The notes below the pieces were generated by a model that saw only the letters and a list, made by a program, of their open reading frames with translations, ran no database searches and had not been told where the DNA came from. Positions 2,365-61,153 of a DNA stretch of 64,000 bases are shown here, piece by piece. This DNA is from a virus, in the IMG/VR virus record IMGVR_UViG_3300043395_002432, positions 75,497 to 139,496 of that record. One strand, 5' to 3'. The first letter of the stretch is position 1. Each line of letters opens with the position of its first letter. Both the position numbers and the translations under genes were made by a program.

Positions 2365-2665
2365 TCGTTTCCTCTCTCTTGAGCTTAGCTGCTCGAACGT
2401 GATCTGCCAAAAGAAGGTAGGGCTGGCGACGAATTCGACTTCGCCACCAGCCCCGCCTTCCCTTCCCTTTCCCCCCTTCCCTTGCTCTTCCCTTGTCACC
2501 GCTTCTTGCGCCGGAAGGGCAGCCTCCAGAGGAGGCTCCGTCGTCTCTTGGATTCTGGGCTTTCTCTCCGATCCGAGATCCGTTCCTGATCGGGCCTTAC
2601 CTGCGCTCTGAGATCCAGAGGGGTGTACCCGATCTTCCGCCGCACCTCAGACCGAGAGAACTCGC

Positions 2666-3649
2666 TCAGTTTCCCTCAGGCAGCTCCACCGCCGCCAAGA
2701 ACGCAGGCCGGAGCGGCACCACCGTGTCGATCTCCTTCGCCAGCGCCTGAAGCACCGAGAGGCGGTTCAGGATCGGCGCAAGGTGCGCTGCCTTGTTCCA
2801 CTCGCCCAGCACCGACTCCTCGAGGGTCTTGTCGCAGCCCGCCACCAAGGACTCCGCGATCTGCCCGTGGCCCTGAAGCTCGGAGAGGTTCGAGGTCTCG
2901 ATGATCGCCTGGATCTTGTCGGCACACTCCGCAATGGCGAGGTTCAAGGTGCCAGCCGCCTCGAACAGCGCGAAGTCGAGAGGGTCGACCGGGGTCGTGG
3001 CGGGAGCCGCAGACTCGTTCAGGAGCGCCCGCAGGGCCGCGACTGACTCGTTCTTCGGAGCAGGAGCCGCAGCCTTCTTGAGGTGCAGCTTCGCCCGCAG
3101 CTTCGCCACCTTCTTCATGTGGCGCTTGGTGGAAGCCTTGCGGCGGTATACCTTCGCATACCGCTTGCGATCCGAGCGGTGCCGACGCCGCAGGAGCTTC
3201 GCCTTCATCTTCTCGGCACCCTTCAGGATGCGCTGCTTCACCTTCTTCAGCGAGCCACCCACCAAGCGCCGGATGAGCTTGAACGCCTCATCGAGGGACG
3301 CACCAGAGGCGACCGCCTGGGCGACCTTCTCGGTGATGTTCGCCTTCACGGCGTTGCGATCCTTGTCCTCGACCGCCTGCTCGGAGAGGATCACGTCGCT
3401 GGCATACGCGGCGTCCACCATCTCCATGAGCGCGTCCACGACCTCGGCGGAGGTCTTGAAGCGAGACTCGGGCAGGACAATCGGGTCGTCCTGCTTGGTG
3501 GCCGCAGGCTCGGTCGAAGCGGTGGCGGCGGCTGGGGCGTCCGTGGTCTGCCGCTCCTCGGTCAGGGGCTTGGTGGCCACAGGCTCAGCCTGCTTGATCC
3601 CCATGAAGCGCATGGCGCTCGCGGTCAGCTTGTCCTTGTCGATGCTCAT
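2666..3649 (-). CDS. Putative prohead core protein
   Basis: Between portal and protease as T4 gp67/gp68; very basic central segment (KAKLLRRRHRSDRKRYAKVYRRK); start at ATG 3649. Confidence 0.6.
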   Translation of the reverse strand: MSIDKDKLTASAMRFMGIKQAEPVATKPLTEERQTTDAPAAATASTEPAATKQDDPIVLPESRFKTSAEVVDALMEMVDAAYASDVILSEQAVEDKDRNAVKANITEKVAQAVASGASLDEAFKLIRRLVGGSLKKVKQRILKGAEKMKAKLLRRRHRSDRKRYAKVYRRKASTKRHMKKVAKLRAKLHLKKAAAPAPKNESVAALRALLNESAAPATTPVDPLDFALFEAAGTLNLAIAECADKIQAIIETSNLSELQGHGQIAESLVAGCDKTLEESVLGEWNKAAHLAPILNRLSVLQALAKEIDTVVPLRPAFLAAVELPEGN

Positions 3650-3659
3650 CTCAACTCCC

Positions 3660-4400
3660 TCATCTAAGGAGATGCTTACCGATATACACAAAATCGGCAA
3701 GGCGAGCGCCCAGGAGATCGTGGATCGCCACCTGCTCGTAGAGACTCAAGGCTCGAATCTCCTCTCGGGATGGCAAGGCGTCGAGCGTGCGGTGCATCGA
3801 CGCCACCAAGCGGTCGAGCGCGGGTCGAAGGGCTGGAGGAGCTTGAGGAGAGATCGGAGGGGAAGATGCTTGATACCGCTCGATCAGCCCCAGGATCTTC
3901 GACTCGACGATCTTCTGGAATCGAGCGGGATTTCGATCCTTCAGAACGAATTCGGCGCTCTCGAATTCCTCACTCTGGAGGTTGATCTCTCCCCAGGCGC
4001 TCTTGGTGAGGACTTCCTCCACACGCTCGAAGCAAGAGGGGATCGGGGTCTTCAGTCCTTCCTCCACAGCCTTCTTGGTGAAGTACCTCAAGGCTTCTTG
4101 AACCCAAGCCGACGCAGCCTCTCCACCCCAAAGCGCGAACGACACCCGAGCCGGATTCGGATAGCCCTCCTCTCCCTCGTGGAATCCCTTCGTCGTCTTC
4201 CACCCCTTGGTGCGAGCCAAGAAGCGATACATCCGATTCGCCTTCTCCTCGGAGAGCGGATCGCCCTTCAGAAGCGCACGCGCCTCGCGGACAGTCTGAT
4301 CCTCCAAGCCGTCCCCACTCAGCCCCGCCTCATGCCACCGAAGCCCCTGCTCCAACTCGGCCAGCACCTCCTTTGGTGCAAGCAAGATCGAATCGCTCAT
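3660..4400 (-). CDS. Head-module hypothetical protein
   Basis: ARALLKGDPLS..RMYRFLAR..ARVSFALWGGEAASAW resembles a domain I recall from phage head regions; GGAG RBS. Confidence 0.6.
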   Translation of the reverse strand: MSDSILLAPKEVLAELEQGLRWHEAGLSGDGLEDQTVREARALLKGDPLSEEKANRMYRFLARTKGWKTTKGFHEGEEGYPNPARVSFALWGGEAASAWVQEALRYFTKKAVEEGLKTPIPSCFERVEEVLTKSAWGEINLQSEEFESAEFVLKDRNPARFQKIVESKILGLIERYQASSPPISPQAPPALRPALDRLVASMHRTLDALPSREEIRALSLYEQVAIHDLLGARLADFVYIGKHLLR

Positions 4401-4427
4401 GTTCTCCTCCAACGAATTCGAATTCGT

Positions 4428-6324: not shown

Positions 6325-6798
6325 TCAGCTCCCCTGGAAGGGCTGGAGATCCTCGGGGACGTCGAAGAACTCCAGAGACTCATAGGCACGATCCTCGTCC
6401 TCAAGGCGGGTGAGGTCGTCCCGGTCGTCCTCAGCGTCGTCGTCGCCACGCCAGCCGTCGATCCCCATTTGGATCTGGTCGACCGCCTCTTGCAGCGTCG
6501 CTGCGCTGGCGACCGGGCAGGTGAACACCCAGCGATCCGTCGACACCGGATTGACGCGGATCGTGACCGCCTCAATCCAGTGGTCGGGGGAAGACCAGGG
6601 GAGAATGCCGACCGCGATCACGCCGAGGTCGAATTCGGCGCGCAGGCCGAGCTGGTCGGCGCGCATGAAGTGCCACACGCGCTCACGCTGAGCGCGCTCA
6701 TGGAGCGCCTCAGTGGTGAGGTGGATCGGGGCCGCGCTCGTCAGCGCGAGGGTGGCGGGGATCGAGGCGAGGGGGTTGGCGGTCGTCATGCCCCTCAT
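6325..6798 (-). CDS. Hypothetical protein
   Basis: Fills gap between portal and ParB genes; acidic C-terminus. Confidence 0.55.
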   Translation of the reverse strand: MRGMTTANPLASIPATLALTSAAPIHLTTEALHERAQRERVWHFMRADQLGLRAEFDLGVIAVGILPWSSPDHWIEAVTIRVNPVSTDRWVFTCPVASAATLQEAVDQIQMGIDGWRGDDDAEDDRDDLTRLEDEDRAYESLEFFDVPEDLQPFQGS

Positions 6799-6829: not shown

Positions 6830-7753
6830 TTAGGCCGTCTTGACTTCTTCTTGACAGGATTCGTCCGCAGGAGGCGGGGGCGGATCTTCTGGTGCCGTAT
6901 CCTGCATGAGCGCAGCCGAAGGAACGTACCCATTCAAGAGATCGAGAAGGACGTCCGCAGGCTCGATCCCATTCTCCTTGAATCCCCGCAGCTTCTCATG
7001 TAAGAAGGCGAATCGCTCCTCGGAAGCCACGTTGACGTAAATATGATCCTTGCCCCCGTAGGAGAACACCAAGAAGTGCGAGCCAAGCTCATTGCCGTCC
7101 GTCGTGAACACCTTCGAGATGATGTTGCTCAGATCCTCGGGGGTCTTGGCCCCTGAAGCGGCTTTGTCGAACTCTTGGAGCTTCTTGCTTCGAGTCTGCT
7201 TGTCTACGCTGTCCAGGGCTTGCTTTACGGAGAGCCGAGCAGACGACAGGAGCTTTTCATACGACTTGTCGTCGGTGATGCCCATTGCCTCCTGAAGAAG
7301 CTCCGCCGGGTGGCGAAGGATCAGATCCATGTAGAGCTTCGAGAATTTCTCGGGACTCACCCTGCCGTGGATGAGGTTGAGCCTCATGGTGATCAGGTTG
7401 CGAAGATCCTTGCAGGCTTGGTCGTTGCCCGCGATCTTGGGATCGTGAATGATCATGGCGGGTATGGTCGTGTGGCCAAGCGAAGCGCACGCACGCATGC
7501 GATGCTCGCCACCAATGAGCTGGAACGTCCCATGTGGGGTCGGCCATACCTGAATAGGGGCGATCATCCCAACCTCTTGAATCTCCTTCACCAAGCGAGC
7601 GAACTCACGCTCGTTCATCGTGTTCGGATTCAGGGGATTCTTCTCGATCTTGGCGATCTCAAGAGCAGGATTGAAGTCGAGCGTATGGTGCGACGAAGTC
7701 GACTTCGCTGCCGTCGTTGCCAGAGCTTCTTGCGGATACATGACGTCGGACAT
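6830..7753 (-). CDS. ParB/Srx-like domain protein
   Basis: NPLNPN..LVKEIQEVGMIAPIQV..LIGGEHRMRA (GxxR motif). Confidence 0.85.
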   Translation of the reverse strand: MSDVMYPQEALATTAAKSTSSHHTLDFNPALEIAKIEKNPLNPNTMNEREFARLVKEIQEVGMIAPIQVWPTPHGTFQLIGGEHRMRACASLGHTTIPAMIIHDPKIAGNDQACKDLRNLITMRLNLIHGRVSPEKFSKLYMDLILRHPAELLQEAMGITDDKSYEKLLSSARLSVKQALDSVDKQTRSKKLQEFDKAASGAKTPEDLSNIISKVFTTDGNELGSHFLVFSYGGKDHIYVNVASEERFAFLHEKLRGFKENGIEPADVLLDLLNGYVPSAALMQDTAPEDPPPPPADESCQEEVKTA

Positions 7754-7762: not shown

Positions 7763-8119
7763 TTAGCGTTTCTTTCCCTGGTTCTCTTCAAGCCAGAGAC
7801 GACCCCGCTCAGTCAGGATCGCCCACTCGATCTTGCGCGGGCCAGAAGACGAAGGACGCTCTTCGATCCGCACCAAGCCACGACGCTCGAGAGAGAAGTA
7901 CGTCGACCGATCATTGAACCCGTCGTTGTAGCCAGCCGAGATCAGCGCAACCTCTCCCCGTGAAGCCACGCGCTGAAGCGCCGTCCGCTGATTGTACCCA
8001 AGTGGTTTGGTGGTGACATCCACAAGCCCCCCACGAGCCATGTCGTCAAACAGCGGATCGGTCTCGGAAGAAGCCATGCCATAGTCTAACCGAAGACTTT
8101 GCAGGCTGTTTGCAATCAC
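7763..8119 (-). CDS. Small winged-helix-like hypothetical protein
   Basis: SLERRGLVRI...AILTERGR pattern typical of wHTH wings; coupled to upstream stop. Confidence 0.5.
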   Translation of the reverse strand: MIANSLQSLRLDYGMASSETDPLFDDMARGGLVDVTTKPLGYNQRTALQRVASRGEVALISAGYNDGFNDRSTYFSLERRGLVRIEERPSSSGPRKIEWAILTERGRLWLEENQGKKR

Positions 8120-9552
8120 TCACCAAAGAGTCCGACCTGCGCTTGACGAGGCTTCGGCTTCGTGGCTTCGTCGTAGCGGGGCCGCTGCGGAAGCCCCTGA
8201 ACCTCACGGGAGGCGTAGTCGCACCGACCGTAAATGACGGACTCCATCGCGGGATCTCGCTCAATGAGGGTGATCGACTGGCGATTCAGGACGGCAGCCA
8301 CGCCCGTGGTGCCAGAGCCTGCAAACGGATCGAGGATCTCGCCACCGGGGGCCGTGATGAGGTTCAGGCACCAACGCATCAGCTCCACAGGCTTCACAGA
8401 GACATGCGGATTCCAACGCTCGGTCTTGGTGCCGTCCGAATTGTCGAAGACCTTGAGCGGGGGCAGATGCTGCAAACCCAGATCCTTCTCCTCCAGGGTC
8501 GGCTTCGGGCAGTAGACGAAGCCGTCGTGATCCGTCCATTGGTGGTTGTTGAAGCGCATGCTCTCCGCCGAGAGCGGATCAGCGAACGGGTCGACCTGCC
8601 CATGCATCGCAAGCACAGGACAGCCCACGACGCACTTGGTGGAGGTGCATTCGAATGCGTGCGTCATGACCACGTTCGCCGGAAACCGCCCCATGTCGTA
8701 GCTCTGAGCAGGAAGCGAGCGATACTCCCCATGCGCGTTCGAATCGAGCAGCTTGCGCTTCCCTGAAGCCGTCACTCGCGCCCCCTCGGAGCCGATCCGG
8801 CAGGACTTGATGTTGAAGCCCCCCGTCCCCCACTTCAGCATGTTCTCCGCAATGGTCGCCTCACTGATCGGCTTCTGCACCACTGAGATCGGCTCGGTCG
8901 CAGGCTTCAGCCCTGAATGCCAATCCTCGAAACGCTTGCCCTCCTCAGAAGCGGGGTGAAGGCGACGGAAGACGCGACTCTCCCCGTCCCCGTATCCTAC
9001 GCTCGCCGTAGGATTGAGCAGCTTGGTGTGATCCCTTCCAGCCCCCCGATTCGACAGCTCCCCCTCACGGGAGCTGACACCAAGGTGGTCGTCGATGGCA
9101 AGCCCTATATTGAGACCCCGAGGCATCCCGGTCGCGTAGTGCCAAGTGATCATGCCGCGCTGCTGGAATCCCGCAAGACGAAGCGCCATCCCCATGAGGT
9201 CGAACGTGCGCGTCCCAGAGAAGGTCAGCAGGTAGCCCCCAGGACGAAGGACGCGAAAGCACTCGTACCAGAAATCTGGCCCAGGCACCCAGGCATCCCA
9301 CTCCTTCCCCCCGATCCCGCTCTTAGGCTTGGTGCGCGTCGCTGGCCCCGTGTACCGCTCCCCTCGAGCCTCCGCCTCCAGCACCAAGCGAAGCCACTCG
9401 CTCCACTCCAGAAGCACCTGACGCTGCATCCGCTCCTGCTCCTCCGCAGAGGAGAGACCATACGGAGCATCCGTCACAATGGCGTGGTAGTAGTTGTCGG
9501 GGATTTGGCGAAGGTACGCGAGGGAATCACCAATGTGTATCCTGGGAATCAT
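8116..9552 (-). CDS. DNA amino-methyltransferase (N4-C/N6-A, beta class)
   Basis: IHIGDSL..IVTDAPY (DPPY variant), GRFPANV, HVSVKPVELM, ILDPFAGSGTTG; start ATG 9552. Confidence 0.9.
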   Translation of the reverse strand: MIPRIHIGDSLAYLRQIPDNYYHAIVTDAPYGLSSAEEQERMQRQVLLEWSEWLRLVLEAEARGERYTGPATRTKPKSGIGGKEWDAWVPGPDFWYECFRVLRPGGYLLTFSGTRTFDLMGMALRLAGFQQRGMITWHYATGMPRGLNIGLAIDDHLGVSSREGELSNRGAGRDHTKLLNPTASVGYGDGESRVFRRLHPASEEGKRFEDWHSGLKPATEPISVVQKPISEATIAENMLKWGTGGFNIKSCRIGSEGARVTASGKRKLLDSNAHGEYRSLPAQSYDMGRFPANVVMTHAFECTSTKCVVGCPVLAMHGQVDPFADPLSAESMRFNNHQWTDHDGFVYCPKPTLEEKDLGLQHLPPLKVFDNSDGTKTERWNPHVSVKPVELMRWCLNLITAPGGEILDPFAGSGTTGVAAVLNRQSITLIERDPAMESVIYGRCDYASREVQGLPQRPRYDEATKPKPRQAQVGLFGE

Positions 9553-9590
9553 GAACGCTCCGTGATAGGGCGATCTATCACAGGATCGGG

Positions 9591-10085
9591 TCATGTGCCT
9601 TCGGAGGGAGCCACCAAGCCGCGATCCCGAGCGTTCGAGAGCGCGATCCGAATCGCGGAGAGCAGCGTCTTCGGCATCGGATCGTCCGGGGCGAGCGTTA
9701 GCCACGGGAGGGGGACGTAGCGCGTGTCGAGCGGGTCTTGGTGGATTACCAATTGCCACCCCGCGCACTCGGGGTCGTAGTCCTCGTCCTCGGGAATGAG
9801 CGTGTAGTACTCCAAGCTCAACGAGGTCTCCGCCTCGATCTCGTCGATGTCCGTCTCGCAAAGGATCAACGCGAGAATCCACAAGCCAAGCTGGTAGCCT
9901 GCAGGACGATGCAGGGGAATCCTCCGCTCTTGCTCCCCCGTCTCCTTCGACTTCCAATTCCAGTCAGGAATGAAGTCGGAATTGTTCTGCCAGGGGTGAA
10001 AGCCAAGCACCATGCGCGTGATCGGCGCAAGGACGGTGCGGACGGAGCCAGGAAGGCGGTTGACGCGAATGAAGTAGCTGTCCAT
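9591..10085 (-). CDS. Hypothetical protein
   Basis: Protein-like composition, fills gap between terminase and MTase. Confidence 0.55.
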   Translation of the reverse strand: MDSYFIRVNRLPGSVRTVLAPITRMVLGFHPWQNNSDFIPDWNWKSKETGEQERRIPLHRPAGYQLGLWILALILCETDIDEIEAETSLSLEYYTLIPEDEDYDPECAGWQLVIHQDPLDTRYVPLPWLTLAPDDPMPKTLLSAIRIALSNARDRGLVAPSEGT

Positions 10086-10148
10086 CGGGTTCCCTCTCGC
10101 TCCCTTGTTCGATTCCTCCTTGGTGGGCAAACGAATTCGAATTCGTCT

Positions 10149-12434
10149 TCAGCCCATGATGAAGGGAGGGGCGGGGACGTCCGGGTTCGCGTCGCTCGTC
10201 CCCTTCTTCGTCTCAAGCCCCGCGTCGTTGAGCCGCTCTACAGGGGCGTACTCGCGCCGATCCAGCTCCGTCATGCCGCCCCCGTCCCACTCTCGCCAGT
10301 TCTCGGGGGTCTTCGAAGGGGAAACCCACTCCAACCCGTCCTCCTCTGTGGTGCCATTCGGATACTCCCGAGCAGCCTCAATCGCCTTCTGCGTTAGGAT
10401 CGGATCAGGCTCAGGGGCAGCACCACGAAGGTGACGTAGCTCCACGTTTTGGTGCCGGAACGGCGCTCGAGGATTGATCGAGTCCTGCGTGACCCAATGC
10501 GTGTCCTCGAGATCCGCCCCCCCATGCACCAAGTCCGAATCAATGTACGACGCCTGCCGAAGGGCCATCAATTCAAGGTTCGTCACCACGCCAGCCACAG
10601 CGTCAGACGTGTCCTTCGATCCACCAAGCGGGTGATCCACCTTCCGCGACAGCGGGTCGTACTCGAGCTGCTTCATCTCGGTCAGGAAGGGTTCGTACTC
10701 GTACATCCGAACACGCCCCTCCATGAGCGCGTTTCGAAGCGCCTCATACGCCTCCGTCCCGTCGTCCACCGAGAGGAGGTTCGCCGGTATCCCATTGTCA
10801 CGAAGGATCTGGATTCCGTCCGCTGACTGATACTTGTCCAACGTCGTCAACGCTATCTCGAAGCCATGATCCCGAAGCGCGTAAATCAACGCCCGAATCT
10901 CTTGAAGCAGGATGTACTCTCCGCTCGGAGGCTTCACCCTCAAGACGAAGTCGATCTCGATCTCAGGCGCTGACTCGAAGTAGGTCTCCGCAAAGTCAGG
11001 CGAACGCCGCTCGACCTGCACCAAGCGCGTCGTATGCCCCATGCTGATCCCAAGCCCGTCTCGCGCCAACGACTGATCGACATGGATCACACGAACCGAG
11101 TCAGGGTGACGACGCGGAACCCAACGATACTCATGATGCCCCATGCCAACCTTGATCTTCTTTCGCTCACACAAGACGTCCCAAAGCGGGAGTAGCTTGC
11201 TCTGAAGAATCCAAGTCTCGCTCGAGAAGGGATGCTTCAGCTCTGGACGGATCGTAGGACGGTACAAGCACGCTTGAATCGTCAAGAAGGACGCCACAGC
11301 GTCCGTAGCCATGCCAGCAACGTCCTGAATGCTCGACACGAGGTTGATCTGAAACTCCTTGACGTACTCAAACGGGACGTTGATGATCGTACTCCCGTCC
11401 CGAAGTGCCGATGGATGCACCTCCTCCTTCGGGGCCAGAATGCGAGAGCGTGTCGACCCCTGCCCCACCAAGACTCGGAAGTACTTGCCACTGAAGCTCT
11501 CGGCAGGCTTGACGTCCCACGTCGCCTTGTCAACCACGTAGGTGGTCGGATCGTTCTTTCGCTCGTTCACGCGACGCGCCGAGAACGAATTCGAAGTCGT
11601 CTTCGAGGACATCAGTACCGTCTTCATCGGCACCTTGCCCCCAGAGAGGAAACGGCTCTTGATACGATTCGTGAGCGTGACATACACACGCTCCGCAAGA
11701 TCGAAATTCGCCGCCGTCATCGTCTGCCCAGGGGACTGAATGACAGGCTTCTTCCGGCGTCCCATGAAGTTCGTCTCGTCCATGAGGAAGCCAACGACGT
11801 CAAGACCCAGCGCACGCTCAGAGTTGACGGAGCCAATCTCTACAATAATGCTCTTCGGAAAGCGAATCCCGTCCGCCCTCTCCGTCCAGGGAAACTCCTT
11901 CTTGAAGTAGGGCGAGCTGCTGATCTTCTCCATCACCTTGCCAAGCACGACGCTCTTTGCAAGGTGCAAGCTCTTCGACATGCAGAAGAGGTATATGTTG
12001 GAAGTAGGCGCAATCCCAAGCGCAGACTGCGGGGAACGCATACACGAAAGCTCGTAGAGCTGCCGACAGAAGATGATCGACCCAAGGAAGGTCTTTCCCC
12101 AACCCGTCGACCCTGTCAGGATAATGTCAATGTACCGATCCGCCTCGAAGATTCGATCCAGCTCGTCCTTCAGCGGCTCGTAAAGCGACTCGCACGATTT
12201 CCCGAGAAAGTATGGATCTTGCACGAAGGTTCGTATATCTACCGGCTCCCGATCAAAGACCGCACGCGAGATCGCTTGGTAGGTGCTGTTCGAGCCTATC
12301 GCCGCCTCTTGGATCATTCGAAGGAAGAGCCTCCGCTGCTCGGGCTTGAGTGAGGCTATGGAGTCCTCGATGAGCGCAGCCTCCTCCTCCTTGGTGCGAA
12401 TGTGATGCGAACGCCCACCGCGATTCCGTATCAC
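10149..12434 (-). CDS. terL: Terminase large subunit
   Basis: Walker A GSTGWGKT, Walker B FLMDE, nuclease IHVDQS..DG, KVDHPLGGSKDTSDAVAG. Confidence 0.92.
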   Translation of the reverse strand: MIRNRGGRSHHIRTKEEEAALIEDSIASLKPEQRRLFLRMIQEAAIGSNSTYQAISRAVFDREPVDIRTFVQDPYFLGKSCESLYEPLKDELDRIFEADRYIDIILTGSTGWGKTFLGSIIFCRQLYELSCMRSPQSALGIAPTSNIYLFCMSKSLHLAKSVVLGKVMEKISSSPYFKKEFPWTERADGIRFPKSIIVEIGSVNSERALGLDVVGFLMDETNFMGRRKKPVIQSPGQTMTAANFDLAERVYVTLTNRIKSRFLSGGKVPMKTVLMSSKTTSNSFSARRVNERKNDPTTYVVDKATWDVKPAESFSGKYFRVLVGQGSTRSRILAPKEEVHPSALRDGSTIINVPFEYVKEFQINLVSSIQDVAGMATDAVASFLTIQACLYRPTIRPELKHPFSSETWILQSKLLPLWDVLCERKKIKVGMGHHEYRWVPRRHPDSVRVIHVDQSLARDGLGISMGHTTRLVQVERRSPDFAETYFESAPEIEIDFVLRVKPPSGEYILLQEIRALIYALRDHGFEIALTTLDKYQSADGIQILRDNGIPANLLSVDDGTEAYEALRNALMEGRVRMYEYEPFLTEMKQLEYDPLSRKVDHPLGGSKDTSDAVAGVVTNLELMALRQASYIDSDLVHGGADLEDTHWVTQDSINPRAPFRHQNVELRHLRGAAPEPDPILTQKAIEAAREYPNGTTEEDGLEWVSPSKTPENWREWDGGGMTELDRREYAPVERLNDAGLETKKGTSDANPDVPAPPFIMG

Positions 12435-13346: not shown

Positions 13347-13597
13347 GCCGCCTCAACGAATTCGACTTCGTTGGCACATGCGGTGAAGACGACGTCCGCC
13401 ATTCGAAGGGTGATGCTGGTCATGGGCAACCCCTCGACAATGATAGGCTCTCCGCTCTTGGTGCGAGGAGAAGAGATCGTCAGCCAGGAGACCCCCTCGT
13501 CGAGGAAGTGCGTGCAGCCTCCACCAAGCATGCACGAACGCCCCGTGATGTTGGCACTCTCGCCCGTGATCCCGACCACCACCAGCTTCTTGCTCAT
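13343..13597 (-). CDS. Small hypothetical protein
   Basis: GGGAG RBS; beta-rich. Confidence 0.6.
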   Translation of the reverse strand: MSKKLVVVGITGESANITGRSCMLGGGCTHFLDEGVSWLTISSPRTKSGEPIIVEGLPMTSITLRMADVVFTACANEVEFVEAA

Positions 13598-16848: not shown

Positions 16849-16999
16849 TGTTGCTCTCCTGAGGTAGCCCCGGAAGGGGTCGGTTTGACGCCCCCTATAT
16901 AAGCCCAACGAGGGGTCGAGGCGAGAACGAATTCGACTTCGTTGGGGCGGTTTGCTCGTTCTTGACAACGAGGCGAAGAAGATGCCTTCGAGCGTGCAG

Positions 17000-18138: not shown

Positions 18139-18191
18139 TCATCCCCTCTTGGTGAACGACGCATTCGAATGCGTCTCAGCTCGAGAGTAAC

Positions 18192-19162: not shown

Positions 19163-19200
19163 GTCTCACCCCGATGAACGAATTCGAATTCGCCACACCA

Positions 19201-21936: not shown

Positions 21937-21955
21937 TTCGAATTCGTCGACGAGG

Positions 21956-41400: not shown

Positions 41401-41451
41401 CGATGCCTCCCAAGGAACCCTTAGCGCCCACAGCGAACGAATTCGAATTCG

Positions 41452-43483: not shown

Positions 43484-43606
43484 GACTCCCGTCCAGCACC
43501 TTGAAGATAGCACGGCATGGGCTTTGGTGCTGAGAAGAGGAATGAGATGAGAGACCCCCCCAGACCCCCCCCCCACCGCGAGATCAGCACCTCTACCTCC
43601 GACATA

Positions 43607-43669
43607 GAAGTGTCTTAGTTCGGGAAGACGAAGACCCCAACGAAGGCGACTTTTCAGATCGTACTTTCG
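43607..43669. repeat. Fourth copy of bipartite motif upstream of Rep-like gene
   Basis: GAAGTGTCTTAGTTCGGGA at 43607, CGTACTTTCG at 43660 (+53). Confidence 0.85.
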
Positions 43670-43753
43670 ACGACCACGAGGACGACTGCACCAAGCCCTG
43701 TCCACGAACGAAAAGAGGCACCCCAGGGGATGCCTCAGCGAAGTCGAATTCGC

Positions 43754-44575
43754 TCAGAACGCGGAGATCGAAGGGATCGCCTCCCGCGACCGGGCCAACG
43801 TGATCGAGTAGCTCTGACCAGAATGCTCCCGAGCCAGCTCCGCGTACTTCCGAGCCAGCTCATGGGTATTGGTGCTGTTCGAGATATGCCCCACCACCAA
43901 GTGCCGAAGCGAGGGCGTATTCCCAACGAGAAGCCTGTAAGCCTGCTCATTGCTCAGATGCCCGTAGTCCCCGCGAATTCGCGTTCGCACCGACGACGGG
44001 TACTCTGAATTCAGGAGCATCTCAGGGTCGTGATTGAATTCCATCACCAAGATCTCGACCTCTTTCAGCCGCTCCCGAATCACCGAGGTCGCCCGACCCA
44101 GATCCGTACAGACCATTGCCGTCGAATGGCTGTTGGACACCAAGAAGCACACAGGCTCCCGAGTGTCATGCGGAACAGGGATCGCCTCAATCTTTAGGTG
44201 CTTGACGAAGAAGACCGAACGCTCGATCACCTCTTGGCACCGAATCTTGCCCCGCTCCAGATTCTTCGACCCCTCCCACGTCCCCCGCGTAGCCCACACG
44301 TCAGGCATGCAGCCCCGGCCAGCCAACGCCCGCTGCACAACGCCAACGCCACCAACATGGTCGATATGCTCATGCGTAATGAGGATCGAATCAATCGGGT
44401 GGCGCTCTAAACCCCCAGCAGCCTCTAAGCCTTGCTGAAGCCTCATGTTCGACCCACCGCAGTCGATCAGAACGCCAGCATGATCGTCCCCTACCCAGGT
44501 GCAATTGCCTTGCGACCCCGAGGTGAGGGAAAGAAGCCGAAGAGGCTTTGCCAGCCGAACCCCCCTCAGGCGCAT
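43754..44575 (-). CDS. MBL-fold metallo-hydrolase (YycJ/WalJ-like)
   Basis: SGSQGNC, LIDCG, THEHIDH, HDTREP, TDLG, EFNHDPEML, GHLSN, GHIS. Confidence 0.88.
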   Translation of the reverse strand: MRLRGVRLAKPLRLLSLTSGSQGNCTWVGDDHAGVLIDCGGSNMRLQQGLEAAGGLERHPIDSILITHEHIDHVGGVGVVQRALAGRGCMPDVWATRGTWEGSKNLERGKIRCQEVIERSVFFVKHLKIEAIPVPHDTREPVCFLVSNSHSTAMVCTDLGRATSVIRERLKEVEILVMEFNHDPEMLLNSEYPSSVRTRIRGDYGHLSNEQAYRLLVGNTPSLRHLVVGHISNSTNTHELARKYAELAREHSGQSYSITLARSREAIPSISAF

Positions 44576-44818: not shown

Positions 44819-44839
44819 CGAAGTCGAATTCGTTCCTGC

Positions 44840-46183: not shown

Positions 46184-46269
46184 CGCTCACCTCAAGGTGG
46201 CGATAACACCCACGTTACAGAAGTGACAAGGGACACCACTTGGTGTCCCCGTCGAAGTCGAATTCGTCC

Positions 46270-47603: not shown

Positions 47604-47888
47604 TCAAGCGTATCTGCTCTCGGGCCAAATGTCATTGGTGCTGACCTTGACATCCTCACCCGTCACCGTGGCAAGGACACCACCCCTCCGAAGAAGGGAA
47701 GCGATCCGCTTCGCGTCCGCATTCGAATTCGTTTGCAAGACGACCTCCCCAGGGGCGTCCACCCAGGTGAACCTGATCCCCGAGACCTCGATCTCAGCAC
47801 CAAATCTGCCGAACTCGAACCCGAGGACGGCACCAATGGCCTTGTAGGCGTCAGCGGGCGTATGCAAGACCTTCAGCAGTGCGCGCAT
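47604..47888 (-). CDS. Hypothetical protein
   Basis: GGAGG RBS; MRALLKVL. Confidence 0.6.
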   Translation of the reverse strand: MRALLKVLHTPADAYKAIGAVLGFEFGRFGAEIEVSGIRFTWVDAPGEVVLQTNSNADAKRIASLLRRGGVLATVTGEDVKVSTNDIWPESRYA

Positions 47889-49802: not shown

Positions 49803-49864
49803 GGCTCTCTCCCTCTTGGTGGCTTTAGTCGAGGATGTCGGCGCGGGCAACGAATTCGAATTCG

Positions 49865-51834: not shown

Positions 51835-54449
51835 CAGAGACGAGGATCGAGGCTTCCGTCGTCAAGCGAGTGCAGCCGCAGACACGCCTCGGCGCAAGCG
51901 TACCGATCCCCCTCGTACCAAGCCTTGAGCGCCTTCTCGGCCATCCGGGTCTCGTTCGACGCCTGAGCCATCTTGCGGCCCACGGAGCGGTTCTGAAGCC
52001 GCCCCAGGTAGTCAGGGTACTCGGGGCCGTAGATCAGCCTGAGGTACTCAGGACGCCGCACCTTGATCGCTGGCGCAATCGAATTCGTTTCCAGCCCCTG
52101 CATGACCTTGAGATCCGCCTCCGCCGTAGAGCGACGCTGCCTCATCGAGGGCATGGGCTTGACGACGAAGCCCTCCAGATCGGGGGCAGCGGAGAGGAGG
52201 AAACGCCCCTCAACGAAGCTGCGGGCGACCAATTTCCGCCCAAAGGGTTGATCCAGCCACACCGTGTAGTCGGAGATCCCTCGAATCGCTCCTTCGTCTC
52301 CCAAGAGGCACGCAAGCTCCTCTCGGAAGGTGCGATCAGGATCTCCGATCATGAGGCTCTTTCGGGCCTTATCGAGCGCCGGAGTGCGGACGTTCCACAC
52401 CCTGTAGTGAACCTCCGAGGAAGCCCCGAAGATGTTGAGCTGGTTGCGGTAGGCTACAAGGTGCTTCAAGCGCCGCTCCTCGTAGAGATCGGGCCGATGC
52501 TTCTCGGCATGCGAGGCGAGGGCGGCAACGGGGCCGAAGGTATCCTCGATCAAGCCCCGAGCCTTCAGGCTCCAGGGCATCAATTCGCCGTCGAGGAGGA
52601 TCGGGGTGCCGTACCGCTGCACCAAGGTGTCGAGGGTGGGCTTTGCCCTCTCGAGGAACTCGGCCTCTTGCTCGGGGCGAAAGAACCGCATCCCTGCGCG
52701 AGAATGGAACTTCCACTCCTTCCCGTCCTGTGAGGAGGCGATCATGCGGCTGCCCATGTACTTATACTCTACGACGACCCGGTCGACGCCGACGCTCTCG
52801 TAGTAGCGGAAGGCTGCCTCAGGATGCTCGAGCAGTTGGTGCGCTGGGTGATCTGCACTCTCCTCTCGCAGCGACCGCATGATGCTCCCAGAGGGCGGGG
52901 GGATCGTGGCAGGCACGCAGGGAAGATCCCAGGGCGCTCCCTTGGTGCGGAGCCAAGACTCCAGCACGACCTTCGAGGGAAGCTCGAGGAGCGGCTCACG
53001 CGCCCAGGGGTCGGGGGGGCAGAAGCAGACCACGGCACCTTGTGTTGGCGCTCCGTACTTCTCGCTCTCGGAATTCTCCTGATCGACCCCGAACACCTTG
53101 CAAACTTGCCAGATCCCCTCCTTCTCGAGGCGGGTGAGGAACGCCCCGAATTCTTCACGCGTCCACTCGAAGGTGTGATCCCAATGGCGCAGTCCTTCGA
53201 GGTTCCAGGCGGCGTTGTACTCTCGATTCGGCGTCGTGATCAGCATGTGCTTGCCACCAAGCTGCTCGCGGAGCGCCTGCATGCAGAAGTCCACCATGTT
53301 CGGCGGGAGATGCTCGATCACCTCGACGAAGAGGAAGAGGTCGGCGGCTACGATCTCGGCGGGGAGCTTGAACCCGACCGCCCCTCGAACGACGGTGGCG
53401 CGCTTGAACGCCCCTGGTGCGGAACGCTTCTGGTTGCGCCGGAACCACTCTCGCTCCTCACCAAGCGGCTCCATGCCGATCATGGCCACGTTCTGCGTGT
53501 CTGCTCCGGGGAGAAGCGGGGCGAGCATGCGAAGGAAGCGACCGCCCCCACAGCCGAGGTCTGCGATCAGGCAGTCGCCCTTCATGAACGGAATGAGCTG
53601 CTCTGCGGTGACCTCTACCCGCCGCTGATACAGCGTGACGGTCTCCCCCTTGCCGCCCACGTCCTCCTCGCGCTCGGGCTGCGGCTCGACCTCGGAGGGA
53701 GGGAGGCTCGCGTCGAGAAGCTGCCGCTGCTTGCGGTTGTCCGTGAGCGAGTGAACGATCCGCGCCCGCATGCTTGGTGCAATGCTCGAGATCCAGCCCT
53801 CCATGAGCTTCGCTTGCGCCTTGACGTCGTCCTCGGAGAGGGGGTAGTGCCGATCCGAGGAAAGGACTCGCACCAACGTCACGATCTTCTGAAAGATCTC
53901 GTCGATGGAACCCTCGATCTCCAGCGAGAGATCCGCGAACTGCCCCACCAAGCCCCCGCCGTCCCAGCTCCCGTAGAGGTAGATCGGGCTGGGGCAGGGA
54001 CTCCCCTCAGACGGAACGAAGCCCAGGGCAGCCGCAACCTCGCCCACCACGCGCTCGTTCCTCCAGCCCGAGGAGAGCCTGAGGTTCGGGATCTGCATCC
54101 GAACCCGCATGTGCGGATCACACTTCGACGTCGCCTCCTCGGGGAAATTCCCCTTCAGCGGGGTCTTCCACATGCGGGCGAACGCCGAAATTCCCCTCGA
54201 GTCCGTCTGGTACGGGGCCGAGGTGACGTAGGGGGCGAGCGGGAAGCCAGAAGACCCCGTGATCACCAACGTCTCAGGCTCAAGGTGCAGGCTCGTCGTG
54301 ACCTTGAGCCAGTCCTCGCCCTGAACGAATTCGACTTCGCACTGCCCGACCCCCGCTCGCTTCGGGGCTTGCGGCGATGCGGGATTCTTGCCGAGCAGCC
54401 ACCCCACCGAGAGGGGATCGGCTACCAGAAACCAGAGGATGATCTTCAT
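51834..54449 (-). CDS. Hen1 (activation + 2'-O-methyltransferase) fused to Pnkp ligase domain
   Basis: WLLGKNP..PYVTSAPY (Hen1 N-half); DLGCGGG, EVIEHL, TTPNREYN, RHWDHTFEWTREEF (Hen1 MTase); LEHPEAAF, EYKYMGSR, LDGELMPWS, EGFVVKP, PAIKVRRPEYLRLIYGPEY, DPRL (Pnkp ligase). Confidence 0.9.
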   Translation of the reverse strand: MKIILWFLVADPLSVGWLLGKNPASPQAPKRAGVGQCEVEFVQGEDWLKVTTSLHLEPETLVITGSSGFPLAPYVTSAPYQTDSRGISAFARMWKTPLKGNFPEEATSKCDPHMRVRMQIPNLRLSSGWRNERVVGEVAAALGFVPSEGSPCPSPIYLYGSWDGGGLVGQFADLSLEIEGSIDEIFQKIVTLVRVLSSDRHYPLSEDDVKAQAKLMEGWISSIAPSMRARIVHSLTDNRKQRQLLDASLPPSEVEPQPEREEDVGGKGETVTLYQRRVEVTAEQLIPFMKGDCLIADLGCGGGRFLRMLAPLLPGADTQNVAMIGMEPLGEEREWFRRNQKRSAPGAFKRATVVRGAVGFKLPAEIVAADLFLFVEVIEHLPPNMVDFCMQALREQLGGKHMLITTPNREYNAAWNLEGLRHWDHTFEWTREEFGAFLTRLEKEGIWQVCKVFGVDQENSESEKYGAPTQGAVVCFCPPDPWAREPLLELPSKVVLESWLRTKGAPWDLPCVPATIPPPSGSIMRSLREESADHPAHQLLEHPEAAFRYYESVGVDRVVVEYKYMGSRMIASSQDGKEWKFHSRAGMRFFRPEQEAEFLERAKPTLDTLVQRYGTPILLDGELMPWSLKARGLIEDTFGPVAALASHAEKHRPDLYEERRLKHLVAYRNQLNIFGASSEVHYRVWNVRTPALDKARKSLMIGDPDRTFREELACLLGDEGAIRGISDYTVWLDQPFGRKLVARSFVEGRFLLSAAPDLEGFVVKPMPSMRQRRSTAEADLKVMQGLETNSIAPAIKVRRPEYLRLIYGPEYPDYLGRLQNRSVGRKMAQASNETRMAEKALKAWYEGDRYACAEACLRLHSLDDGSLDPRL

Positions 54450-54832: not shown

Positions 54833-55078
54833 CTACTTGTCAGTGGGCGTGGGCGTTGGCCCCGAGAGACTGTCTCGTCCCGGTCGCTTGCAGAGAAGGG
54901 AAACATGCTCCCAGGGCATCTCCGCCTTCAGGGCGACGATGAGGTCGCTGCTGTTCTGGCGAAAGTCGTCGAGCGACCAACGATCCAGTACGCCAACGAT
55001 ATCGAATTCGTCGGTGGCCTCTGAGGGCGAAAGCAGACCCTGCGGGGGGCGTGTCTTGAGAGCCGAGATCATGTTCAC
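54833..55078 (-). CDS. Small hypothetical protein
   Basis: GTGA coupling to upstream gene. Confidence 0.5.
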   Translation of the reverse strand: MNMISALKTRPPQGLLSPSEATDEFDIVGVLDRWSLDDFRQNSSDLIVALKAEMPWEHVSLLCKRPGRDSLSGPTPTPTDK

Positions 55079-56340: not shown

Positions 56341-57258
56341 CTACTTTGCAGCACCTTGACGAAGTCGAATTCGTTGACCACCCCCGGATGGGGCAGCGAC
56401 ACGCTTGGTGCTTTGGTAGAGGTACTCGTTCGCCTCAGAGGTCGCCCCCACGGAAGCCCCAATGGAACGACGCTCTCGGATCGGCGTGCGCTTCCCAAGG
56501 AAGCCCCAAGCCTCATCCGCCAACGCGCAAGCGGGCTGGCTCACCAAGAGGAGGATGCGATCCCCGAGAGCTGCGAGAAGCCGCTGGCAGATCCGCGAGA
56601 GGACGTTGAGGTGAGTCACACCAAAGGCTGCCGAGTAGCCAGTGAATTCCCCCGAGGCTCCAGTGACGTAAGGCGGATCGAGGTAGACAACGACTCGGTC
56701 GTATCCCGAGAGATCCTCCTCGAGGAGGCGAAGAAGCACCTCGTTCACCCCCCTCGCCTCAAGCCGAATGTCCCCCTGGCGCAGCGCCTCGGCAGCAGAG
56801 AAGAGCATCTCCCGCTGATCCTCAGGAAGCCCCTGAAGACTCCCGCCCCACGACACGTTGAATTCCCCCCGCTGGTTCGTTCGCCATAGACCGTTGAATC
56901 CGTAGCGCGAGAGGAACACCAAGAGGGCCGCTCGCTCGAGCGCAGATCCCGCCCCCGAGTTGAACCTCGCCTTGCGAAGCTCCCAGAGCGTCTCCGTGTT
57001 TCCCTCTAATGCCATGAGCGCGTCCCACACCCCTTGCGGATCGTCTCGGATCGCGGTGTACGCCCCCATGAGGTCAGCGTTGTAGTCCGAGAGGTGCGCC
57101 CGCTTGAACCTTGGTGCGAAGGCTAAGCCCACAGCGCCGCCACCCAAGAACGGCTCGACGTAGAGACACCGACTCAGATCCAGATCCGCGAAGCCTGCCG
57201 AGATGTCCGCAAGCTGCCTGCGCTTTCCCCCTGGCCACTTGATGAAAGGCGTTGCCAT
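56341..57258 (-). CDS. dam: Dam-like DNA adenine methyltransferase (alpha class)
   Basis: PFIKWPGGKR, YVEPFLGGGAV, GFNGLWRTNQRGEFNV, VYLDPPY. Confidence 0.9.
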   Translation of the reverse strand: MATPFIKWPGGKRRQLADISAGFADLDLSRCLYVEPFLGGGAVGLAFAPRFKRAHLSDYNADLMGAYTAIRDDPQGVWDALMALEGNTETLWELRKARFNSGAGSALERAALLVFLSRYGFNGLWRTNQRGEFNVSWGGSLQGLPEDQREMLFSAAEALRQGDIRLEARGVNEVLLRLLEEDLSGYDRVVVYLDPPYVTGASGEFTGYSAAFGVTHLNVLSRICQRLLAALGDRILLLVSQPACALADEAWGFLGKRTPIRERRSIGASVGATSEANEYLYQSTKRVAAPSGGGQRIRLRQGAAK

Positions 57259-58894: not shown

Positions 58895-60232
58895 TTAGAA
58901 CTCCGTGACCGCCTCCACAGAGACGTCCTCCTGCACGCCGACCTCACCAAAGTGCATCCCGTCCAGATCCCACTCCATCACGATCTCCTTCACGCGACTG
59001 CCCGGTCGCCGCACCTTGGCAGGAATCAAGCGCATGCGACTGTCAGCCGCGTCGTCAGCACTCCGCTCCAGCTCGAAGAGGTTGTCTGCCGTCTGCGTGA
59101 TCCGATCCGTAATGCCAACGCGCCCCTGAATCGACACCGAAGACTCCTTCGAGAGTGACTCGCGGTTCTCTTGCGTCGTTACCAAGATCGCAATCTGCCG
59201 CTTACCCCCAACATTCCAGTAAGCCGGATGCCGAACCACCGGCCACGACTTGCGCGTCCACTTGCGAATGAAGGAGCAGCCAATATCCATCTTCTCCTTA
59301 TCTTTGGTGACCTTCGGCCCGCCCCAAGCGATCTCATACGCAGAGTCAAACACCACGACGTCTGGCTCGAACGCCAGAATGTGCGCCTCAATGTTCTCGG
59401 GCGTAAGCCCGTCGTCCTCGTCCAAGATCCCGAAGCCACCTTGACCCACAAACTGCGACCGCAACTGCGCCGCAAGCAGATCTCGCGTGTGCGAATTGAG
59501 ACCACGCACCATGCCCGCATACGACGCCCCCGTCGCCAACGCGAAGGCACGCTCCGCCATCTCGAGCTTCTTCAACTCGGGAGAGACCACCAAGATCCGA
59601 GGCTGACACTCCCCTGGAATGAAGCGCCGCATCCAGAGGGAGATCGCAATGATCAGCACGATCCACGTCTTCCCTACGCCAGGACGCGCCATGAACCACG
59701 TAGACGTGCCAGCCGCAATGCCCCGCGTGAGCGAATTCAGGGTCGCCCACGGCGTCTTCAAGCCGTCTGATCCGAGGATCGCCTGATCCAACCGCACCAA
59801 GAGCGGCTCGATCATGTCCGTTAGCTCGGGAGTCACCAACGTCGACCGAGACGAAGGCATCTCCTGCAAGATCCGACCAAGCTCCCCCACCGCCCCGTCA
59901 ATGTCCTTGCGCTCCAGCCGAGCCACCAACGTCGGAATGCCCCCCACAAGGTGGTCAAAGACCCGACGCTTCGTCAGCTCTTGGATCGCCCACTCTGGCG
60001 TTAGCTCCGTCTCTTGAATGGGCGCTTCATGAACGAAATGCCCAAACATCTCCCGTACCGCAGACACCGTTGGCGAATTCGATTGCGCTTCCGTGTAGTG
60101 ATCCAACCACTGAATCACCGGGTGCCACTGAGGCTTCAGGAGGTCGACGCTGAAGCCAGCACGCACCAAGTCGTCCTTCTGCCTGCGGTAGATGTCGACG
60201 ACCTTCGCGTCGAGAGAGAATTCACTCCTCAC
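58895..60232 (-). CDS. Replicative helicase (DnaB/gp41-like)
   Basis: GLKTPWATLN..GI, ARPGVGKT, VSPEL, VVFDSAY, TTQENR, ITQTAD, KVRR. Confidence 0.85.
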   Translation of the reverse strand: MRSEFSLDAKVVDIYRRQKDDLVRAGFSVDLLKPQWHPVIQWLDHYTEAQSNSPTVSAVREMFGHFVHEAPIQETELTPEWAIQELTKRRVFDHLVGGIPTLVARLERKDIDGAVGELGRILQEMPSSRSTLVTPELTDMIEPLLVRLDQAILGSDGLKTPWATLNSLTRGIAAGTSTWFMARPGVGKTWIVLIIAISLWMRRFIPGECQPRILVVSPELKKLEMAERAFALATGASYAGMVRGLNSHTRDLLAAQLRSQFVGQGGFGILDEDDGLTPENIEAHILAFEPDVVVFDSAYEIAWGGPKVTKDKEKMDIGCSFIRKWTRKSWPVVRHPAYWNVGGKRQIAILVTTQENRESLSKESSVSIQGRVGITDRITQTADNLFELERSADDAADSRMRLIPAKVRRPGSRVKEIVMEWDLDGMHFGEVGVQEDVSVEAVTEF

Positions 60233-60235
60233 CCC

Positions 60236-60625
60236 TCACCTCCTGCTTTGCGAGTCTCGATCCGAGAGAAAGCCCATTGGGAACCATGTAGGGCGCGCAC
60301 CAAGATGCGGAAAAAAGACGAAGACCCGATCCAGCGCAGAGACGTACACGGGTAGACACTCCACGTCGTCCTCAGGATGCTCTTGGTGCATCTCCACACG
60401 CCGAATCGGAACCCACGCGTCCCGATCCTCAAAGCAATGCCGCATCATCCCCGAACTCAGCCAGAGATCCCCAGCCGCCTCCTCGACCAGCTCCATGAGG
60501 ATCGACCACTCTGGGGAAAGCCTCCCATGATACCGAGCCACCAACATCTGGCAGTAGACCCGGTTCCGCTCCACCACCCCCAACTGAAGCCACCCCTTCA
60601 AGGTGCGAAAGACCCTGAGATCCAT
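60236..60625 (-). CDS. Hypothetical protein
   Basis: GGAGAG RBS. Confidence 0.55.
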   Translation of the reverse strand: MDLRVFRTLKGWLQLGVVERNRVYCQMLVARYHGRLSPEWSILMELVEEAAGDLWLSSGMMRHCFEDRDAWVPIRRVEMHQEHPEDDVECLPVYVSALDRVFVFFPHLGARPTWFPMGFLSDRDSQSRR

Positions 60626-60661
60626 GCTCTCCCCCTTAACCAAGAGGAGAAATTCAGCCCG

Positions 60662-61153
60662 TCAAGCCACCGTCAAGATCGGCTTCCGATGAAATCCGAA
60701 GCGAGCCGTGAGAAAACGTGCGCCAAAGCCCTGGATCTCCCTGTTGATCCGAAGCGAGAAACGCAGCCGAGATCGCGTGTACTTCGACCCCCACGCCCGA
60801 GAACCTCCCCGAAGCGAATTCCCACTCCAGCCATGATCGCCCGCTGGATCTAACTGCGCCTGATACACCCCAAGCGCCAGACGAGGAATCAAGAACTCCA
60901 ACGGAAGCGCAGACACCTCCGCCAGCCGCACCGAAGCACCAAGTAGACGCGTCGCCTCCGCTTGCGAAGCACGCCAGCCAGATCCCCTCGAAGCACTCAG
61001 ACGCTGAGACTCCCCAAGAAGCCCCAACGCCTCAGCGCCAGCTCGCGCACAAGCACCAAGAAACAATCCCCACTCCTCACTCCCAGGAACGAATTCGACT
61101 TCGTCCCAAGCGTGAAGAGCGAAGATCGCCAACGCCTCAGACTCGGCACTCAC
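60662..61153 (-). CDS. Hypothetical protein
   Basis: GTGA coupling. Confidence 0.5.
   Translation of the reverse strand: MSAESEALAIFALHAWDEVEFVPGSEEWGLFLGACARAGAEALGLLGESQRLSASRGSGWRASQAEATRLLGASVRLAEVSALPLEFLIPRLALGVYQAQLDPAGDHGWSGNSLRGGSRAWGSKYTRSRLRFSLRINREIQGFGARFLTARFGFHRKPILTVA

Follow-up and report, generated by a model that had tools for sequence, protein, structure and literature searches.

What could account for a phage genome that carries the same short palindrome again and again along its whole length? The question is raised by a 64,000-nt stretch of IMG/VR record IMGVR_UViG_3300043395_002432 (the window), which spans bases 75,497-139,496 of a 139,496-bp contig of an uncultured freshwater phage (G000; G+C 61%, completeness 68% by CheckV) and in which the 14-bp palindrome CGMAKTCGAMTKCG recurs both between and within genes. 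The lattice formed by these copies is real and strongly selected. On the sequence patterns described here, its copies are most simply explained, and most likely serve, as docking sites for a dimeric DNA-binding protein encoded by the phage. The candidate readers considered are a primase (41771..43705, minus strand) and a ParB/Noc/KorB-like protein (6830..7753, minus strand). Positions refer to the window unless given as contig or genome positions; G numbers denote virus records and L numbers the contigs or stretches compared, G001 being made up of L024 and L025 and G009 of L183-L189.

All 31 exact copies of CGMAKTCGAMTKCG listed for the window by an earlier, sequence-only reading were recovered, against a mean of 0.01 and a maximum of 1 in 100 dinucleotide-preserving shuffles. 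Its nine near-matches also exist, seven of them within two mismatches of CGAATTCGAATTCG and two (8646 and 51303) with three mismatches, and two further sites within two mismatches were found at 1282 and 43974. The excess holds for the whole contig, which has 69 exact copies and, counted by distance from CGAATTCGAATTCG, 20 sites with no mismatch, 46 with one and 25 with two. These 91 sites, 40 of which lie in the window, compare with about 12 expected from an order-5 Markov model, for which 30 simulations gave means of 0.8, 2.1 and 9.0 in the three classes. As first read, the half-sites of the exact copies are CGAATTC, CGAAGTC and CGCATTC only, used 38, 22 and 9 times on the left and 42, 18 and 9 times on the right. 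A half-site departs from CGAATTC by A3 to C or by T5 to G and never by both, and near-matches may also have A at position 5. The exact copies are flanked by purines at -2 and -1 (63/69 each) and by pyrimidines at +15 (62/69) and +16 (57/69), and the full unit is therefore an 18-bp palindrome, RR-CGMAKTCGAMTKCG-YY, of which AACGAATTCGAATTCGTT is an example in duplex form.

The two halves combine independently. C3 is found with G12 in 3 copies, compared with 12 (6 + 6) in which only one of the pair is present, and G5 accompanies C10 in 4 copies where 5.7 would be expected from independence, positions 5 and 10 being mismatched in 32 more. At flank positions 1-8 Watson-Crick pairs are not over-represented in general (a single offset gave p 0.03, uncorrected for multiple tests). 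Independent halves and the lack of covariation in core and flanks argue against a hairpin and for a symmetric dimer on duplex DNA. Avoidance of palindromes of this kind, usual in phages according to the sequence-only reading, is not seen in this contig, in which GAATTC occurs 53 times outside the lattice against 18.6 expected from base composition. The palindrome is itself built as two tandem 6-bp palindromes of restriction type, GAATTC-GAATTC here and GCATGC-GCATGC in the relative L003 described below (3309-3324 and 9997-10012).

The sites are evenly spaced. Gaps along the contig average 1508 bp (range 235-3714 bp) with a coefficient of variation (CV) of 0.49. Random placement gave a CV of 0.98, and a null model aware of gene junctions, in which intergenic sites were placed one per gene gap, gave CVs that averaged 0.93 and never fell below 0.67; in neither case was a value as low as 0.49 reached in 5000 trials. 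The largest gap, 3714 bp, is about half the null median of about 7100-7400 bp. With respect to genes, 44 of the 91 sites are intergenic, in 44 different gene gaps, although intergenic DNA makes up 11.7% of the contig, and 22 sites start 0-7 nt past a stop codon where 0.94 would be expected at random. The remaining 47 copies are coding and fall in all three frames (27/14/6). The preceding stop codon often supplies the purine flank.

Within the window, the ten copies first described as lying just after a stop codon do so, at 0-7 nt by a crude gene caller: immediately past it at 32357..32370, 41438..41451 and 49851..49864, after 1 nt at 4413..4426 (followed by a Shine-Dalgarno sequence and the next gene start), 24900..24913, 38251..38264 (behind the ribonucleotide reductase gene) and 43739..43752 (upstream of the primase gene), after 3 nt at 10132..10145 and 46253..46266, and after 7 nt at 44819..44832. 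Other exact intergenic copies are at 2430..2443, on top of a longer GC-rich inverted repeat, 16928..16941, 18160..18173, 19179..19192, 21933..21946 and 23659..23672, the last within a longer inverted repeat, and one copy (36677..36690) lies at a gene start. Exact coding copies are at 13357..13370, 20659..20672, 25638..25651, 28319..28332, 29321..29334, 30697..30710, 33743..33756, 34830..34843, 47718..47731, 54326..54339, 56360..56373 and 61090..61103, with one more within the 5′ end of the ParB-like gene (7694..7707) and one within the primase gene (43148..43161). Single mismatches occur at 11586..11599 and 21146..21159, and two mismatches at 1282..1295 (CGAGATCGAATTCG), 6624..6637, 37774..37787, 43974..43987, 52074..52087, 54997..55010 and 60074..60087.

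The suggestion that three copies abut promoters held in part. TTGACA boxes (44819 and 38251) or TTGACG boxes (32357 and 24900, in the latter case 11 nt away) can be seen by eye 2-12 nt downstream of four sites, but a consensus promoter scan of 36001-56000 called none of the boxes in question. Over the contig, four or five copies precede TTGACA-like boxes at varying distances, again by eye, and about five intergenic copies top longer GC-rich, terminator-like hairpins with T runs (2430 and 23659, and genome positions 7666, 71717 and 73890). These neighbours are read as the site being fitted into whichever junction element is at hand. Outside the window, at contig positions ~10,600-12,100, palindromes separate sequences that appear tRNA-like, as judged by eye from the flanks.

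Contigs related to G000, found via the portal and having many proteins in common with it at 30-55% identity, carry lattices of other palindromes. L001 (48% G+C) has 10 copies of GAAAT-YR-ATTTC in 21 kb with even spacing (CV 0.31, p 0.00045), L002 (55% G+C) has 6 copies of GCAAT-YR-ATTGC in 14 kb, and L003 (65% G+C) has 5 copies of GCGCATGCGC and its 16-mer in 10 kb, whereas triplet shuffles of these three held at most 2-3 copies of any palindrome. The relative L155/G007 has 5 copies of TGCAA-N4-TTGCA in 19 kb. Two fragments carry GCAATCGATTGC, namely G012 with 6 copies in 27.8 kb, too few for its spacing test (p 0.18), and G011 with 5 copies; a GCAATCGATTGC core is also common to L002 and L155. 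In the 129.6-kb relative G009, which has direct terminal repeats, only 8 copies of CGCAAT-YR-ATTGCG were found and no other palindrome is enriched, which may represent a decayed lattice or else a small regulon that could be the ancestral state. On the sequences compared, then, the lattice is a lineage trait whose palindrome changes, and its inheritance through such changes argues for a co-evolving reader. In the near relative L147 both common sites (41438 and 43148) are kept with 14/14 bases each, which is uninformative given a nucleotide identity of 94% between L147 and G000. G002 (149 kb, 2 copies) and G003 (347 kb, 1 copy) were considered as relatives and rejected; neither has a match to the ParB-like protein. 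The proposal that a dimeric phage protein binds the lattice is partly supported by these results, through the dyad degeneracy, the even spacing, the behaviour as a lineage trait and, as described below, the lack of a host-wide signature in sampled genomes.

The same palindrome was found in one unrelated phage lineage. An IMG/VR scan for the 16-mer returned 15 stretches, 14 of them with a single copy and the other in G001, a 27.1-kb record with 11 exact copies, 13 sites within two mismatches and the same RR...YY flanks. Downstream of its primase gene the gaps are ~2.2-2.9 kb, and the spacing is even (CV 0.27, p 0.00045). The surrounding 39 nt of the window copy at 61090 are 95% identical to a G001 site. 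CheckV rates G001 as 94% complete, but its last 127 bp (26974-27100) repeat internal bases 1732-1858 exactly, probably an assembly overlap, so that both this figure and the true genome ends are uncertain. The portal of G001 is of the SPP1 type, and the terminase and protease-capsid genes are its own. When the 179 predicted G000 proteins were compared by phmmer with the open reading frames (ORFs) of G001 and of L148 and L149, two metagenome contigs of the same kind, only two common proteins emerged, and BLASTP agreed: a tail-tube protein (87% identity) and the primase (42% identity over 544 residues between G000 and G001). The palindrome is present in 5/5 contigs that encode a close homologue of the primase (35-85% identity), namely G000, G001, L147, L148 and L149. 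Directly upstream of the primase gene there are three tandem units of ~210-280 bp in G001 and four in L148, each with one palindrome, which could be an origin or promoter array. The units (L148:8960-9870, L024:3250-3830) also hold conserved blocks, among them a GAAGGAAGGAAGG run and a ACCACAATTAGATA box. In G000 the smallest gap of the genome, 235 bp between 43739 and 43974, likewise lies upstream of the primase gene, and another copy lies within the gene.

The primase had been left off the candidate list of the sequence-only reading, although it is the protein of DNA-binding type that both lineages have in common. Its gene product (start codon uncertain, conserved from ~43354) has a winged helix at its N terminus, followed by a CHC2 zinc ribbon and, at the C terminus, an archaeo-eukaryotic primase (AEP) domain. 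A word-based homologue search with it gave nothing, a profile search of PDB sequences gave a chance match only and the query itself has no Pfam match, but a profile search of 1.84 billion proteins returned 72 homologues. An AlphaFold (AF2) model built on 36 sequences has a mean predicted local distance difference test (pLDDT) score of 83.7. In this model residues ~272-524 match AEP primases by VIA-align, including the S-2L PrimPol (Z 8.6) and RepB′ (Z 8.5), and Foldseek matches the C-terminal half to herpes simplex virus UL52 (E 7e-5), human PrimPol and the LigD polymerase domain. D389 and D391 are invariant in 36/36 aligned homologues and correspond to the acidic DxD metal-binding motif. The motif II block reads ETSKRGxQ, with a nearly invariant Q441 where the His of sGxGxH would be expected (the register is set by alignment only). 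C138, H141 and C163 are nearly invariant, and the distant homologues P0007 and P0010 pass the Pfam cut-off for Zn_ribbon_DnaG (CHC2). Residues 1-104 match winged-helix DNA-binding domains of dimers that read palindromes and of origin-binding proteins, best illustrated by CooA (Z 7.2, root-mean-square deviation (rmsd) 1.9), and also other CRP/FNR-family proteins, SarR (MarR/SarA), PadR, MarR and ORC2/Cdc6 (Z 6-7, rmsd ~2-4 Å). As modelled, the protein joins a primase to a DNA-binding head of the type found in palindrome-reading dimers. A non-coding leader of ~370 bp (43345-43715) upstream of its conserved part contains G runs and a tandem AGACCCCCCC repeat (43552-43571), and a leader box, CCCGAACTAAGACACTTCTAT, is met again in the contig near genome position 21,650.

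Together with the lattice itself, these comparisons make it a genuine if tentative possibility that the palindromes are docking and priming sites of the primase. The primase is favoured because it is the sole plausible DNA-binding protein common to the two lineages that have the same palindrome, and because the sites are densest beside its gene. A symmetric dimer of it would recognise the palindrome in duplex DNA, and the cluster of sites immediately upstream of its gene would act as an origin or an autoregulatory operator. With ~90 sites, one per ~1.5 kb, the enzyme would be pre-positioned to start DNA chains on either strand; the palindromic form would present forks arriving from both directions with the same site, and the gap ceiling of ~3.7 kb would hold priming intervals at the scale of Okazaki fragments. 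A priming grid would in this way explain why the sites are palindromic, why they lie on the order of a kilobase apart and why their gaps have a ceiling. A stricter version, in which the primase starts chains solely at the 18-bp palindrome and the genome needs that palindrome on both strands every ~1.5 kb as a programmed grid of Okazaki starts, is more doubtful.

Several observations weigh against the primase, whose binding we infer from sequence and predicted structure and which is a candidate reader. L150 and L151 encode distant primase homologues, 34-35% identical to distant homologues from the search that are themselves ~25% identical to the window primase, and have no palindrome lattice, so the wider primase family works without one; a repeat search upstream of these two genes gave noise only. 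Conversely, no primase homologue was seen in the lattice-bearing G004/L001, G005, G006, G012 and G011, which decides nothing because all of these contigs are fragments. The winged-helix Z scores of 6-7 are middling and can reflect a common arrangement, and the presumed recognition helix differs, by eye, between the G000 and G001 proteins. The two primases are only 42% identical and yet would read the same 18 bp, while relatives whose portals are ~40% identical have different palindromes. To our knowledge no described primase has a lattice of long palindromic sites in duplex DNA. A ParB-like rival is also encoded in three lattice-bearing contigs, and members of the ParB family are textbook readers of palindromes.

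In the main rival reading, which is still a strong one although it too is open to considerable doubt, the palindromes would instead be loading sites of the parS/O_B type for the ParB/Noc/KorB-like protein. A clamp would close at each site and slide for ~1 kb, so that evenly placed sites would coat the whole genome for silencing, protection or compaction, or would carry the neighbouring methyltransferase along the DNA; such sliding would account for the gap ceiling. This protein, already proposed as reader by the sequence-only reading, remains plausible by its fold. It matches PF02195 at 45.3 bits, has a GxxRxxA-type box, GGEHRMRA, in its ParB_N domain that aligns to Noc and ParB, and is encoded by the sole such gene in the contig. 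Its best Foldseek matches are Noc (7nfu), KorB (8qa9) and ParB (7bm8 and 6sdk) over 207-253 columns, but the mean pLDDT of the model is 60.8 (55-78 in its putative DNA-binding part) and the alignments span chains that contain helix-turn-helix domains with an rmsd of >10. A palindrome of 14-18 bp with independent half-sites agrees with the ~13-16-bp site type of ParB and KorB. Of the four homologue-bearing contigs examined, three carry lattices, namely L001/G004 (45% identity), G012 (31%) and L155/G007 (29%), each with a full-length homologue, and L001 keeps the cassette (on the minus strand throughout in G000) of an N6/N4 DNA methyltransferase as first gene (8116..9957), a small winged-helix-like protein (7763..8119; 30% identity in L001, at the same position) and the ParB-like protein. 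G009, with only 8 copies in 129.6 kb, has no ParB_N domain; since it has no primase homologue either, it cannot separate the two candidate readers. Against the ParB-like protein, the identical lattice of G001 (13 sites) is accompanied by no ParB_N match at E <= 0.001 in the 27.1-kb record, whose completeness is uncertain as noted above, and a Pfam search with ten ORFs of the G001 lineage returned nothing relevant, while L154 encodes a homologue (33% identity) but has no lattice in 12.7 kb. The position of the gene beside the methyltransferase also points elsewhere: according to the accessible part of a 2026 report, phage ParB-like proteins without an evident DNA-binding domain activate DNA-modifying enzymes, namely thymine dioxygenases (PMC13229309), and in view of such activators a role tied to the adjoining methyltransferase is a live alternative. 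Of the other proteins first proposed, the small winged-helix protein had no profile match in G001, L148, L149, L147, L002, L003 or L154-L158 even at E <= 10, and its predicted complex with the ParB-like protein scored 0.00, which is evidence neither way; the 15835 protein has no Pfam or PHROGs family, and nothing ties it to the motif.

If a host protein such as a nucleoid-associated protein or regulator read the palindrome, with both lineages on a common host and the relatives on others, the identical lattice of two phages with unrelated proteomes would be explained, as would the different palindromes of relatives that span 48 to 65% GC; the 87% identity of the tail-tube genes shows that the two lineages exchange genes, so that they probably have a host in common. 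We nevertheless consider a host reader unlikely. A 16-mer scan of the genomes of 185,579 species gave at least 120 stretches, each with a single copy among the matches listed, whole-genome searches of five of these gave a single copy in each, and no genome among 301 from one order (Burkholderiales, judging from the title of the central record) had more than two copies of the 16-bp pattern. The concern that the motif might be a host signature is lessened to this extent, namely that the sampled genomes hold no host-wide lattice, but the phage's own host may lie outside the sample. Less probable still is that the palindromes act mainly as short homologies at module boundaries that promote exchange between co-infecting phages, in the manner of PeSL elements. 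It draws on a strain comparison in which contigs of runs X3-X6, from freshwater and riverine metagenomes of other studies, were aligned to 36001-46000 (81% of sampled words present for X3, 20-23% for X4-X6); the uncovered parts of X4-X6 carry no information. X1 and X2, two runs of what may be the source sample, contain this stretch as well. Among the 20 listed of 75 loose ends, four stop matching within 5 nt of 38251 or 44819, where palindromes with their margin make up ~2.5% of the 10 kb compared; divergence was seen at 38249 and 44817-44836, X5 has a replacement joint from 37781 to 38249, and one strain has 24 different nucleotides in place of the gene at 37735-38196. Several copies also precede -35-like boxes and some lie in terminator-like hairpins, as PeSL elements do in the accessible parts of the sources (PMC2839356, PMC4122927). 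But 47 of the 91 copies are within genes, exchange leaves both the even spacing and the strict dyad symmetry unexplained, the other 16 listed ends are off palindromes and the four derive from two sites only, and homology would end at conserved junction sequences anyway. The 41438 copy is kept in the strain contigs (X5 and X6), the listed variants skipping 41327-41487. The palindromes may also be places of module exchange alongside another role. A joint of X3 from 36691 to 43146 was rejected as an artefact of the common motif, having 21 letters on one side and linking two palindromes. As a general explanation, finally, hairpin formation in RNA or single-stranded DNA, whether for termination, processing or ssi-type priming, is largely refuted and appears very improbable. 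RepB′ primes at hairpin ssi sites. It is a structural match of the primase, the title of its PDB entry 3h25 mentions 'initiator DNA', and about five intergenic copies top GC-rich hairpins with T runs. Yet around one copy in two is mismatched at core positions 3-12 and 5-10, without covariation, the flanks show no overall covariation, half of all copies lie in genes in all three frames, and terminator-like hairpins surround only ~5/44 intergenic copies. Nor is the 43739 copy itself a terminator, because a separate, canonical GC-rich hairpin with a T run (43736-43715) directly follows it.

In the accessible parts of the published accounts, the closest case is the 17-bp dyad repeat TGTTCGG-NNN-CCGAACA of Cluster O mycobacteriophages, present in >30 copies in ~70 kb, or ~1 per 2 kb (PMC4351075; PMC6439249). 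There the repeats are partly intergenic, with about a third in genes, and are mostly untied to promoters; a dimeric DNA-binding protein was predicted, proteins with ParB-like domains were noted and the function was left unexplained (PMC4351075). Both systems consist of dozens of short dyad repeats between and within genes (44 intergenic and 47 coding in G000). The Cluster O repeats are denser toward one genome end, whereas the G000 sites are even contig-wide, the sequence and the phage type differ, and no reader, lineage-specific palindromes or sharing across phages are reported in those parts of the Cluster O papers. The PeSL cassettes of T4-type phages are likewise repeated junction elements, and G000 has a T4-like portal and strain differences that end at some copies, but the portions of the PeSL papers available describe longer, composite promoter-terminator motifs in variable regions that are neither even nor in genes (PMC2839356, PMC4122927). 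The 14-mer was absent from a full-text literature search, a search on phage dyad palindromes and genome-wide ParB/parS yielded no description of an evenly spaced phage lattice (supplementary tables lay outside it), and no mechanism for such a lattice was found in the literature searched.

RepB′ of RSF1010 at ssi sites, the phage P4 alpha protein with its winged-helix origin binding, and ColE2 Rep act at one or a few sites at the origin. Like the G000 primase, such origin-binding primases join a primase to a DNA-binding module and have sites beside their own gene, and the AEP fold matches RepB′ (Z 8.5 as above), but G000 has ~90 sites genome-wide and no covariation of the kind expected of ssi-type hairpins. 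Mycobacteriophage L5 stoperators are asymmetric and orientation-dependent. Like the conserved inverted repeats of phiC31, they are sites for the repressor of a temperate phage. Both sets resemble the lattice as many copies of one operator in short phage gene junctions and differ in that half of the G000 sites are coding and no temperate mark was seen in what was examined of G000. The O_B operators of the IncP plasmid RK2 number about a dozen. The likeness to KorB/O_B consists, in the available part of the source, of a scattered palindromic operator, a ParB-family reader and action over kilobase distances (PMC11790492); G000 also encodes its ParB/KorB-like protein beside a small winged-helix protein. 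The differences are the ~90 even and often coding sites of G000 and the unrelated phage that has the same lattice without a ParB_N protein.

The phage itself has no close isolated relatives: megablast of window positions 1-25000 gave no match, the best tblastn match of the portal was <30% identical, the primase had no match and the G001 terminase reached at most 26% identity. The window encodes a T4-like portal, a prohead protease, a class II ribonucleotide reductase and a helicase, besides the methyltransferase and ParB-like genes described above. It also encodes a Hen1-Pnkp ligase fusion, one 871-aa ORF (51834-54449) that joins a Hen1 N-terminal region, a methyltransferase and a Pnkp-type ligase domain (PF12623, PF13489, PF16542). 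The crude gene caller placed 176 of the 179 G000 genes on the minus strand, a near-total one-strand layout that is unusual for a phage of ~140 kb or more. No 7-mers are commoner in the contig than CACCAAG (246 copies) and its complement CTTGGTG (167), which outnumber the palindrome's own words. They lie beside some palindromes, with eight copies at +8 to +21 and four at -13 to -18 against a chance estimate of ~2 per 13-bp window, and a few bracket palindromes as CTTGGTG...palindrome...CACCAAG. The core, TGGTG, is one that we take to resemble Chi-like sequences.

Scattered dyad repeats in phages were described in 2015 for Cluster O and, in the accessible parts of those papers, were left without a function. 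What is new here is the statistical demonstration of even spacing with a gap ceiling, the inheritance of the lattice as a trait while the palindrome changes among relatives, and the occurrence of the same palindrome in phages with unrelated virion and replication genes whose sole common non-structural gene encodes a primase with a DNA-binding domain. The two leading readings are a genome-wide priming grid and a ParB-type clamp lattice, neither of which is described for viruses in the papers searched. If the palindromes are indeed the obligate start sites of the primase, the grid would also limit priming to phage DNA, and any other phage adopting this primase would have to write the same grid into its own genes.

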